In this document: positions 13,147 through 57,004 of the stretch, in pieces
How the letters are laid out: every line of letters begins with the position of its first letter
How positions within the stretch are numbered: position 1 is the first letter of the stretch
Source: Octopus vulgaris
Lineage: Eukaryota
Direction of reading: 5' to 3'
DNA: 64,000 nt
Assembly: GCA_951406725.2 (NCBI GenBank)
Contig: OX597819.1
Coordinates: 76,322,001 to 76,386,000, forward strand
Made by a program: the position numbers and the translations under genes
Notes under the pieces: model-generated
What the model was told of the DNA's origin: nothing
Database searches by the model: none
The model's input: the letters and a program-made list of their open reading frames with translations, nothing else

Positions 13147-13678
13147 ACTACAAAATTAGAGAATGGAGAAACATACTTAAATCAGTAAAACATCAACTAT
13201 CCGATGATACTCAATCCATACTTTAATACACCATTACATATGAGTAAAGGCAATATATAAAATGAAATGAGATATACAGTAATAGTAAAAGTAAAAAGAT
13301 AAAGAGATATAAGTAAAATTTCAAATATAATATGCAAATAAACCAAAACTGACAGCTGTTTCGGCAGTGAGGACAGTCATACCTCATTTAACCTATAAGC
13401 CATAAAGGCAGGTCTGCCTTTATGGCTTATAGGTTAAATGAGGTATGACTGTCCTCACTGCCGAAACAGCTGTCAGTTTTGGTTTATTTGCATATTATAT
13501 TTGAAATTTTACTTATATCTCTTTATCTTTTTACTTTTACTATTACTGTATATCTCATTTCATTTTATATATTGCCTTTACTCATATGTAATGGTGTATT
13601 AAAGTATGGATTGAGTATCATCGGATAGTTGATGTTTTACTGATTTAAGTATGTTTCTCCATTCTCTAATTTTGTAGT
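13147..13678. repeat. Perfect 532-bp palindrome (265-bp arms, 2-nt GT spacer at 13412-13413)
   Basis: Arms read as exact reverse complements; each holds a hammerhead half-core GAAACAGCTGTC (13463-13474 on +); right arm continues uniquely to ~13850, then (TA)n. Confidence 0.9.
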
Positions 13679-13873
13679 ATTAATTTACGGTAATATTATT
13701 ACCTTTACCCATTTAATACAATAGATGAACTGATTGCTTGACAATTTTTAACATCTATGTATTATTTTTGTTGGGTACCTATCTAGCAGTATATTGGATA
13801 TATATTATCCCATGGTGGGTTGAATTTTCAACCCCTATCTCATTTTAACCTATATATATATATATATATTTTT

Positions 13874-14278
13874 ATAATTAATCAATATAGGGTGGCAAAA
13901 AATTTTGTAGAATTCTTTTGCCACCAGCGGCCTAGTAGGAAAAAATTAAAATAGTCAAAGACCATTTTTAAGTTCAACATCAACAATAAAGGAACGGCCA
14001 TAATAGGCCATTCACCCACTAGAAATAACAGCCAAAGCTTCAACCGCAAATAAAAGTTAATTCAGTAAACCAGGAGAAAATTAAAAAAAACATTTACCCT
14101 GTAATTTCTTATACGATATACCGTTTCATCTGCTGATTAATGGTAAACTAACCTGATTAAATTAAATCAAGCCAATCTTCCACAGGCCCTCAGATTCTTC
14201 AGTAAGAAATAGCCCAAGACGGAACAGATATTTTCACGAGGCATTTCCGACGTTGCCAAGTTAATATCTGACCTAAAA
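13874..14278 (-). mobile_element. Inverted partial (405-bp) copy of the array unit, head-to-head with the array
   Basis: Near-exact reverse complement of the unit from ttttaggtcaga to gattaattat; abuts (TA)n on its outer side. Confidence 0.95.
14104..14210 (-). ncRNA. Type I hammerhead ribozyme (inverted copy)
   Basis: Reverse complement of the array HHR. Confidence 0.88.
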
Positions 14279-53793: not shown

Positions 53794-55364
53794 GTTAAAC
53801 TTTACAAAATTATATTTTTACCTTATTTTTTTATTTTATTTTATTTTATTTTATTTTTATTTTTATTTTTATTTTTATTTTTACTTTTATCCTACTTCCA
53901 TTTATTTTTATTTTTAATTTTATTTTTACTTTTATTCTACTTCCATTTACTCTCATTTTCATTTTCATCCCTTACCTTAACTCTTATAACCCTTATAATT
54001 CTTATATTTCATTTCTAACTATTACATTGTATTTCTTAGTTTATACTGTATTTTTTTATTTCTAATCTTTACCCTTACCCTCATTCTTACCCCTAATTTA
54101 TCGCTTTACACCTCTATATATGTTTATTTACTTACCTATGGATCCGCCTTTTGAGTATGCGAGCGTCCGCGTACGTGTGTATGCGCATGCATACATATGC
54201 ACGCGCGTATATGTACATGCATACTTCGATATCTTATGGCTATACCCATGTGCGTGTGTGTCTCTGTGTGTGTGTATGAGTGTATATGTGCACGCACATA
54301 CGGACACACAGCCGTGTGTGCGTGCGCGTATTAACATGAGTACGGGATTCTTTACATACGTTCTTATACACATCCTTTAATATCTTATACCTAGACCTAG
54401 GGGCGTGGGCATATACGTGTGTGTATGTAGTGAGGGGCGCGCGTATATACATGTGAGCGTGTACGCGCGTAATGTCCGTCTATATATGCGGATATTCTGT
54501 TGTATGTATGTGTGTGTGCGCGCGTGCGTGTGGGTGCGTGTGTGTTTATGTACGTGTTTACACGCGAGTGCGTATGTATGCTTATAGGCTTGGAGACGTG
54601 TATGTATACGTGTATGTGGGTGTATGTATCCATGATGATATGTATGTACTGGAAGTCCATTTAATTCAAGGAACCAGATTAAATTCTCATCAGCTCTGAT
54701 TTACGACGAAACTGTTAATTTACTGACAGTTCTACAACTAAGTTTTATCAATCTCCTGACCACCATGCTTGGTCCGCGACCTCTATACATCCCTTATCTT
54801 TACATTCTTTTACACTTTTATCATGTTTTTATCAGGTTCTTTTACTTCTTTTACTATTATTTCCATTTCTATTTTTACTTTACAACCTTATGCCTTTACA
54901 TTTATTTATATTTCTTTATATTTCTTTATACCCCCTTTACATCTCATTACAACTCTTTATATCTTTATCCTCTACATTTTTATATTATTCTATACGTACA
55001 TTTTTTATATATATTTTTTATCCCTCGTCCCGAACTCTCGCCCCTCCATCTTCACCTCTATATACGTATTTATTTATTTACATTACCTCAACATCCAAGT
55101 TTCCTCATTCTACATTGAGAGAAGAAAGAGATGGACGCTTCAATTCTATGCTGCTGCCGCATTATGTCGTACGTGAACGAGAGGATTTGCATCCCCAACC
55201 AAGAATTTTTGATGTAACACATGTCCTTGTGGAAGCTGTTGTGCGCGGCTGAAGAAGGCCACAGACATACATTATGCTTTGTTATAAATCTGTCTAATAA
55301 AGGCCCGAAACATATGTACCGCTGAATCCTTCGCCTCATGTTTTTATTTTTATTTTGATCAATT
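53768..55364 (+). repeat. 5' inverted pseudo-LTR arm (1597 bp)
   Basis: Reverse complement of 49568-51167; joins the ORF at an ATATAT microhomology. Confidence 0.95.
55245..55322 (+). ncRNA. Type I hammerhead ribozyme in the inverted pLTR
   Basis: gcgg CTGAAGA(55249-55255) aggcc..ggccc GAAA(55307-55310) catatg TA ccgc; cleavage predicted after A55318. Confidence 0.85.
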
Positions 55365-57004
55365 GTATATATATATATATATATATATATATATATATAT
55401 ATATATATATATATATATATATAAATAGATAGATACATACATACAAATATACATAATATATATATCTCTGCATCTACATATATCTACCTATATATATATA
55501 TATATATATATATACACAAACGCATAATAGTAGACATATACACATATATATGTGCATGAAGCATGTATGCATGTCTCTTCCTCTTTCTCTCCTCCCCTCC
55601 GCTGTCTCTTTATACACAAGCACACACACACATATGTGTATGCGCAGGCAGACACATATGTAAATATATTGCTGTAAATATGTTAATATTCTTAAAGTAT
55701 CTGTATCTATGTAGGTTACTATGGACATATCCACTGGGGAAAAATACTAGCTTCACGCAAATACATTGGGGAAGAATCAAGTAACAAATCTATATGTATT
55801 CGAAAAGCAAGTTTCAAGTATTTTCGTGTGTATGTAAAATGTTTTTTCTCTCTGCTGTTGTTTGAATGCATATATATATATATATATATATATATATATA
55901 TATATATATATATATATATATATATATGGACATGTACATATATATGATTTTGCAATTATTCATTTGCATCCATGGACATCATTATGTGCCGGAAACCGAG
56001 AAGCAGTGTGCTCTGATGATGTTTGTGAGCACATAAATATGTAGGTATATGTATATGCATTTTTGTATGCACCTGTATGTATTTATATATATACCTGAAC
56101 ATATGTACATACAATTGTTATAATGGTCGTTATGCAGGCAGACACGGAGATAAACTGCCTTGCATTTGCATAAACGCAAAACATGGGAACATGCACATAG
56201 GAAAGTGATAGTTCTAATCGCTAATCTACAACTCGGTTGCTTGATCCGCAACTATCAATTATTCACACCGATGTCATTACATTCGTAGAGAAATGCTTTA
56301 TATCTTTTTAATGCTGACTTAATCTAGGCGCTTTAGCAAGGAAATTTTTATGATTGCTTTTTAAGCCTTAGCGCCGACAGTCAGTCACGCCTTATCGCCA
56401 TTTATATGTACATCAATACTTCAACAAATGTATTAGCACGGTCTCCTTCGTGGACAGAGCAAATAGAATTTGGTTATTTTCTTGAGAATCCAAAACGTGA
56501 TAACAAATTATTTGTTTGGGGGCATGATTTTTCATTGCAGAGATTTGACCTAGTTTTGTCCTTGCCATTGTTATTGTTACTATTGTTGTTTAACCACAGG
56601 TAAGTCTGGAACAATCACATATTTTTCATAAACGTTTCAACAGTAATCATGCAGTCTTTTATTTTCACTTGTTGTTACTGTTGTTTTCGTCGACTTCAAT
56701 GTCACTGGTGTCATCGTTGTTTACTTTATTTTTGTGGATGTTTATGACTTTTATTTACTGCAATGTAGACTTGGCCATTGAATCTTAAATATATTCCCTG
56801 CAAGATACAGCCTCATCGTGGCTCTTTTTACTTTTATATTTTATTTTCATTAAAATTTGTTGTTGCTGATTTTAATTAGTTATTATAATGTTATAGAGTA
56901 TCACTATTATTAAAAGATTTCAGCCATGACTATTTCATTATCTTTGAAAAAATACTGCTTATAAGTCTACATTTTCCAAAGTAACCCCTCCTTTTTTTAA
57001 GCAC

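Follow-up and report, generated by a model that had tools for sequence, protein, structure and literature searches.

In a 64,000-nt stretch of the Octopus vulgaris genome (hereafter the window; GenBank assembly GCA_951406725.2, contig OX597819.1, positions 76,322,001 to 76,386,000), three insertions consist of two overlapping copies of one 3' region, joined head to head and running outward into (TA)n tracts. They derive from two Penelope-like elements (PLEs), F1 (the palindrome at 13147) and F3 (49497-55364), and from a non-coding hammerhead repeat, F2 (the array at 13874-18310). In each family the arms end at two fixed sites, A and B, and inverted insertions almost always pair one A end with one B end. 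We consider it probable that both strands of a (TA)n target prime reverse transcription at sites A and B of one RNA, which would yield overlapping head-to-head copies of the 3' region. The geometry and the TA targeting were already known; the A+B rule is apparently new.

The window belongs to a 2.8-Gb assembly of 227 contigs (about 34% GC). A sequence-only reading of it had listed three such insertions, and probably a fourth, in unrelated sequences. Self-comparison and inspection of the sequence confirmed three head-to-head structures with their 3' ends running into TA (13147-13850, 13874-18310 and 49497-55365; cases 1 to 3), whereas the fourth (47350-48170) proved to be two unrelated old fragments. 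The three are unrelated at the DNA level only: they form one system, composed of two Hydra-type PLEs and a hammerhead retrozyme of about 496 bp. The strands of the hammerheads in cases 2 and 3 fix the polarity: in all three cases the arms meet at their 5' ends, and each 3' end points into TA.

Inverted insertions pair two fixed 3' ends

Sites A and B lie 69 nt apart in F3, 170 nt in F1 and 110 nt in F2. First-look searches gave 1086, 1358 and 751 candidates for the three families, and contig C1 served as the census ground (all of it for F3, up to 154.7 Mb for F1). By coordinate pairing, all 21 head-to-head F3 pairs and all 29 F1 pairs were A+B, compared with an expected share of about half for independently drawn ends. 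For F2, the first 30 of 182 joints between site A and TA were sampled; 28 had an inverted arm ending at B and two were single.

A hand tally, including 52 unpaired ends read from sequence, brought the F3 set to 73 insertions: 46 A+B, one borderline, four with a non-standard partner end, 21 single-armed and one at a gap, with no AA or BB among them. Similarly, 27 of the 60 unpaired F1 ends were read; more A+B pairs came to light but neither AA nor BB, several long copies extending beyond view. A candidate BB pair at C1:43.34 Mb turned out to be two separate A+B insertions. These counts bear out the earlier suggestion that inversion is a routine product, since 51 of 72 resolved F3 insertions on C1 are inverted, as are 28 of the 30 sampled for F2. 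The shorter antisense arm noted earlier for the three clear cases is not a rule: in F3, the A arm reached at least 15 nt further 5' in 15 of 42 pairs, the B arm did so in another 15, and the two stopped within 14 nt of each other in 12.

A common hairpin downstream of sites A and B was not supported, with z-scores of -1.7 to +0.5 and a global similarity no higher than background. Only F3 has a short local repeat after both sites, an AC-rich word that recurs directly after A and B (L271:3520-3560; window 49545-49567) and for which the global test was not significant.

The two arms of an insertion probably come from one template

We compared arms within and between insertions, dropping rows with less than 80 bp of overlap (60 bp for F2). 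Divergence was 0.6% within versus 3.0% between insertions for F3 (40 rows), 0.3% versus 2.0% for F1 (17 rows) and 0.3% versus 3.1% for F2 (32 rows, 28 distinct insertions), and wherever a row had sufficient overlap, two arms from the same insertion resembled each other more than arms from different ones. At polymorphic F3 sites, the two arms shared 189 minor alleles and were discordant at nine. Alleles private to one insertion were present in both of its arms in 17 of 45 F3 insertions, the window's included, and F2 arrays had array-specific alleles common to units of both arms (0.3% within versus 1.1% between).

The 5' starts were clustered. Of 82 F2 starts, 29 lay in the 28 nt that follow the predicted hammerhead cut, versus four in the 25-nt bin before it (p = 4e-16). 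One 20-nt bin at a TCATT motif held 31 of 109 F3 starts, and one 25-nt bin at TCATAG held 13 of 85 F1 starts; we take both motifs to be initiator-like. An extra non-templated G preceded the hotspot start at a small number of TA-joined 5' ends (4/24 in F3 and 2/17 in F1), as a copied cap would give.

The sequence-only reading had proposed a check for junction microhomology, and clean junctions are indeed enriched: at least 2 nt (2-6 nt) were present at 29 of 49, versus 16-19% expected, the remaining 44 of 93 rows having been dropped for inserts or misalignment. Several short template switches precede the second arm at the junctions of L314, L012 and L316. Head-to-head F2 joints also appear in the contigs of four public runs, which come from three studies; several of these joints lie just after the ribozyme cut. 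One run has head-to-head F3 joints as well, and the assembled sample may itself be the source of one of these runs. The short-read contig pieces listed include none of the three junctions in the window. In two raw Illumina runs, coverage of the element and its flanks was close to nil, and no empty site turned up.

(TA)n is the target but not a sufficient cause of inversion

Loci were picked by internal sequence, and an end was scored as TA-anchored if it abutted (TA)4+. Such tracts were abutted by 85 of 88 terminal ends (F3, 28/31; F1, 35/35; F2, 22/22; hence 63/66 for the Hydra-type F1 and F3), versus 2.1-5.0% of background positions. Of the three F3 ends not at TA, one lay at a GATA tract, one at a TC tract that runs on into TA, and one is probably a false anchor. 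The proposal that (TA)n is the target therefore stands, its flanks being far above background. The 64-kb window itself holds 72 (TA) tracts of at least five repeats. Most single-armed copies are flanked by TA on the 5' side as well, indicating that the tract preceded the insertion.

As a control, we scored a family resembling long interspersed nuclear elements (LINEs); 11 of 30 copies extended beyond the reference and were set aside, leaving 19 with a visible 5' end. TA lay on the 5' side of 13 of these 19, yet none was inverted head to head (0/19; Fisher p = 7e-9 versus F3), and one of 40 scored LINE places had an adjacent opposite-strand match. Because a LINE that lands in TA shows no inversions, TA is the target but not a sufficient cause of inversion. 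The self-complementarity of TA, to which the inversions had been attributed, is not supported as their cause; in addition, inverted Adineta PLEs carry target duplications of 9-10 bp, according to the accessible part of PMC3846280. Each priming site, as read from sequence, holds 2-4 nt of UA/AU able to pair with a TA primer, and TA symmetry may help priming.

A different arrangement occurs at the start of the window. Here the 3' end of a LINE has been duplicated in inverted, tail-to-tail orientation over 1162 bp around (TA)47, at 98.6% identity; positions 1-216 (L451:3030-4187) form the centre of this duplication, which ends in another TA tract at 686-725. Its geometry is opposite to that of the PLE cases, and it is possibly a DNA-level fold-back.

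Identity of the elements and layout of the window

F1 and F3 each have one open reading frame (ORF), read by eye as a reverse transcriptase (RT) followed by a C-terminal GIY-YIG domain, with no CCHH motif. In both, DKT replaces the DKG motif, and the CxCX5C linker as well as CxxC and CxH around a conserved E and N are present; the N-terminal RWK motif keeps RW and has an altered K (RIRWR in F1, RIRWA in F3). By pattern, a canonical hammerhead with its core and three stems is present in the pseudo-long terminal repeat (pLTR) of both. Judged by eye against the supplement alignment, F1 and F3 are Hydra-type PLEs. A Pfam search with the F3 ORF (P0001) gave no RT or GIY-YIG family and nothing useful, while PF01541 is carried by 2 of the 120 F3-ORF homologs listed. 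Among the Rfam matches listed (150 of 210) there was no hammerhead, only microRNA-like matches on microsatellites or palindromes, all under the gathering score. The F3 hammerhead motif folds no better than shuffled sequences.

The palindrome of case 1 is the 3' end of the second Hydra-type element, as longer F1 copies have the ORF and the full hammerhead. Its 266-bp inverted arm has one mismatch against 13413-13678, and its sense arm starts inside hammerhead stem II, the cut being predicted after 13474. The F3 unit is about 4.4 kb with an 842-aa frame, and the arms of case 3 share 1600 bp at 99.6% identity. Since tandem F3 copies place the true ORF start upstream, the ATG in the window was created at the junction; codons read upstream of 53767 derive from the inverted arm. 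Both Hydra-type ORFs have long asparagine-rich linkers (window about 51700-52400; L092), of a sort described for Adineta PLEs (PMC3846280, accessible part).

F2 consists of tandem non-coding units with one type I hammerhead per full unit and no ORF. A pattern scan found cores on the plus strand in all eight full array units and on the minus strand in the inverted arm, and the fold z-score is -4.2. F2 is a non-coding hammerhead repeat resembling non-LTR retrozymes, and it likely rides on PLEs. Self-cleavage and circular RNA in vivo are predicted for it, the clustering of starts behind the cut and the homogeneity of the arrays being indirect signs. Three further hammerhead-like motifs lie at 4459-4532 (+), 34384-34458 (-) and 37824-37861 (+; weak).

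The region 13105-18344 thus contains two young insertions of different families with one 18-bp TA tract in common, from which case 2 is separated by four T. This sharing suggests that the flank left by one insertion was hit by the next. The coordinates of all these features are listed in Table 1.

Table 1. Components of the inverted insertions and of the rejected fourth case (window coordinates)
Feature	Position	Strand
(TA)21, left target half of case 1	13105-13146	
F1 inverted arm, 3' end at site A, without tail	13147-13412	-
F1 sense arm, 3' end of Hydra-type PLE, ending at site B	13413-13850	+
F1 tail of about 170 nt	13679-13850	+
(TA)9 common to cases 1 and 2	13851-13868	
Inverted arm of the F2 retrozyme, ending 3' at site B (about position 148 of the unit)	about 13874-14278	-
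Hammerhead in F2 inverted arm	14104-14210	-
F2 array (8.1 units, each 494-507 bp), ending 3' at site A (position 38 of the unit)	14280-18310	+
(TA)18, right target half of case 2	18309-18344	
Old 3' end of Hydra-like family, degenerate hammerhead, outside any fold-back	47345-47868	-
Old GIY-YIG and 3' untranslated region of a different, Neptune/Nematis-like family	47871-48515	+
Short TA tract (only 12 bp), left target half of case 3	49485-49496	
F3 long (sense) arm, truncated just inside ORF start	49497-53767	-
F3 69-nt tail, site B (49497) to site A	49497-49565	-
Type I hammerhead motif in F3 long arm	49610-49687	-
F3 ORF, RT and C-terminal GIY-YIG type, Hydra motifs	51331-53767	-
F3 inverted arm, 3' end at site A, without tail	53768-55364	+
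Initiator-like site in F3 inverted arm	55107	+
Hammerhead in F3 inverted arm	55245-55322	+
(TA)29, right target half of case 3	55366-55423	

A fold-back or nested insertion at 47350-48170 was rejected. In self-comparison the one half is no inverted repeat of the other, and neither the relatives of 47345-47868 (19 loci) nor those of 47871-48515 (19 loci) contain the other half, except for one 51-bp match. The upstream endonuclease, by motifs read by eye, is Hydra-like in the former family and Neptune/Nematis-like in the latter. Old 3' ends of two PLE clades adjoin 5' to 5' here, the right one without its upstream part nearby; this reflects either chance or an infrequent event with two templates. 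Imperfect palindromes or inverted ends of older date (70-84% identity) lie at 49176-49405, 11623-11942 and 24350-25110.

Mechanism and alternatives

The earlier suggestion that both target strands prime is supported. In the mechanism we propose, the GIY-YIG endonuclease of the element, probably acting as a dimer by analogy with the enzyme of PMC11167929 (accessible part), would cut both target strands, and each target 3'-OH would pair with the 2-4 nt of UA/AU at its priming site. The enzyme started at B would displace the complementary DNA (cDNA) started at A, and both cDNAs would often run off the same RNA 5' end, presumably the pLTR transcription start in F1 and F3 and the hammerhead cut in F2. 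Joining of the two cDNA ends would follow, whether blunt, across microhomology of a few bases or with short inserts in between. Priming by one end only would leave a plain 5'-truncated copy, usually with TA on both sides. F2, having no ORF, is likely copied in trans by PLE protein, and its multi-unit arms likely come from circular or multimeric RNA.

The alternative that survives best, although we regard it as unlikely, is that two RNAs, usually from the same source locus, sit in a complex that is asymmetric, with priming at A on the one and at B on the other, or that later gene conversion made the arms alike. It accounts for A+B pairing and non-nested arms without strand displacement, and in a few F3 pairs the two arms are unlike at family-polymorphic sites. 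However, the discordant sites that were inspected are mostly CpG or T-run alignment noise, and no sampled pair is clearly mixed despite many haplotypes (2-3% between insertions). Moreover, some of the 12 F3 pairs whose arms stop within 14 nt do so off the hotspot (L002, L287, L319 and L329).

Less probable still is fold-back, in which one cDNA folds and copies itself, or an antisense RNA does so as in the self-priming on an antisense template proposed by Arkhipova et al. (PMC3846280, accessible part), the second end being resolved at the other site. Perfect palindromes do exist (13147-13678, L002 and L319), junction microhomology is in keeping with this route, and arm identity would follow directly. 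Against it, a copy of the tail-less arm cannot hold the tail and a copy of the tailed arm cannot extend further 5', whereas in 15 of 42 F3 pairs the tail-less arm extends beyond the tailed one on the 5' side by 15 nt or more; F1 family sequence at the centre of case 1 also lacks the hairpin that was looked for. Non-nested arms exclude fold-back as a general route and likewise disfavour antisense self-priming as the main one, so that fold-back loses the equal standing that the earlier reading had given it. It may apply to L273 and to an older symmetric family described below. Because the arms share alleles, either arm can be the longer and 5' starts pile up, twin priming on a single template is favoured over it.

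It is very unlikely that TA self-complementarity alone, through hairpin extrusion or template switching in replication, inverts any element at the DNA level. The duplicated LINE end around (TA)47 and the single adjacent opposite-strand match among 40 LINE places fit such a process, but the former has the opposite geometry, the control LINE was never head to head, and DNA-level events would ignore sites A and B and the ribozyme cut. An assembly or long-read fold-back artefact, which would fit the absence of the window's junctions from the short-read pieces listed, is scarcely credible given the joints in public-run contigs, the asymmetry of the arms, their private substitutions and the family-specific rule that they follow.

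Several observations weigh against twin priming on one RNA or against its generality. All of its steps are read from genomic footprints, and arm identity could be explained by two RNAs of one source locus or by later gene conversion. The partner end is neither A nor B in 4 of 51 inverted F3 insertions (L273, L285, L294 and L320), no structure is common to A and B across families, and F2 is not significantly similar, at the DNA level, to F1, F3 or either old fragment at 47345-48515. In L457, two consecutive F2 units of one arm share two alleles absent from the other arm, so that a monomer circle alone is not a sufficient explanation. The window's own three junctions are without microhomology, and nearly half of the junction rows (44/93) stand outside that count. 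Hammerhead cleavage was not required for insertion in the Anolis assay (PMC11167929, accessible part). Finally, in 5 of 11 other loci a family at 12664-12965 carries one and the same end on its two arms, and the A+B rule therefore does not cover every TA-anchored palindrome.

That family is old and TA-flanked, with about 75-85% identity and symmetric head-to-head fold-backs (L472-L474, L477 and L478). It gave no PLE coding match, and a longer copy runs from 11977-12172 onward.

Relation to known elements

L1 arms are largely non-overlapping, and the second L1 priming site is opportunistic. In the twin priming that Ostertag and Kazazian are said to have put forward in 2001, both target strands prime on one L1 RNA and give a 5' inversion. 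Unlike those of L1, the arms here overlap, both in the three window cases and in family copies, and represent the same 3' region started from two fixed sites.

The published PLE work is cited below from the accessible parts of each paper. Craig et al. 2021 (PMC8557442) reported (TA)n insertion in almost all Hydra families, with an octopus family, Hydra-1_Obim, in the supplement; F1 and F3 were set apart from it as families by eye. F1 and F3 share with that clade DKT, CxCX5C, CxxC, CxH, the C-terminal endonuclease, the hammerhead and (TA)n, and with PLEs at large a 5'-truncated copy, inverted, at the 5' end and a tail that is often confined to one end. They differ in size, F3 being about 4.4 kb with its 842-aa frame and asparagine-rich linkers against 'generally <3 kb' for Hydra, and in their tails (69 nt in F3 and 170 nt in F1, versus 30-40 published). 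Strict A+B pairing and the evidence for a single template are found here and not in those parts of PMC8557442. Penelope of Drosophila virilis and the elements of Adineta vaga (PMC2377424, PMC3846280) also have head-to-head repeats, an optional one-sided tail and palindromic junctions, but ordinary target duplications, unlike the TA-tract cases.

A biochemical parallel is the PAc Poseidon element of Anolis, studied in vitro by Frangieh et al. 2024 (PMC11167929), in which both strands are cut and extended, a dimer is predicted and two internal RT start sites bound the tail. It belongs to a different clade, and the accessible parts of the study do not connect its two start sites with the arms of a single insertion. 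Metazoan non-LTR retrozymes (PMC7229834; bioRxiv 10.64898/2026.07.22.740005) are likewise tandem non-coding type I hammerhead units, and PLEs have been proposed as their mobilisers in the same two sources. The F2 unit of about 496 bp exceeds the 170-400 bp reported there, and F2 arrays carry the PLE insertion footprint; the word 'inverted' is absent from the main text of PMC7229834 and occurs in the accessible part of the preprint only in a reference title. In the literature covered, which did not extend to older subscription papers and preprint supplements, we found no published A+B rule or twin-priming model of PLE inversions.

The inverted ends and one-sided tail of PLEs were named as an open problem in PMC8557442. 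The A+B rule, with arms from a single template, links the two start sites seen in vitro to the two arms of an insertion and is testable in the existing assay, and the pile-up of starts after the ribozyme cut is genomic evidence for hammerhead cleavage shaping templates. We are evenly divided on whether twin priming at A and B of one RNA represents the normal, complete reaction of endonuclease-bearing PLEs, in which a dimer would start from two fixed sites and push aside its own earlier cDNA, with the same machine copying retrozymes from ribozyme-cut linear monomers and circles. If so, the genome would record germ-line hammerhead cleavage and would name PLEs as the mobilisers of retrozymes.

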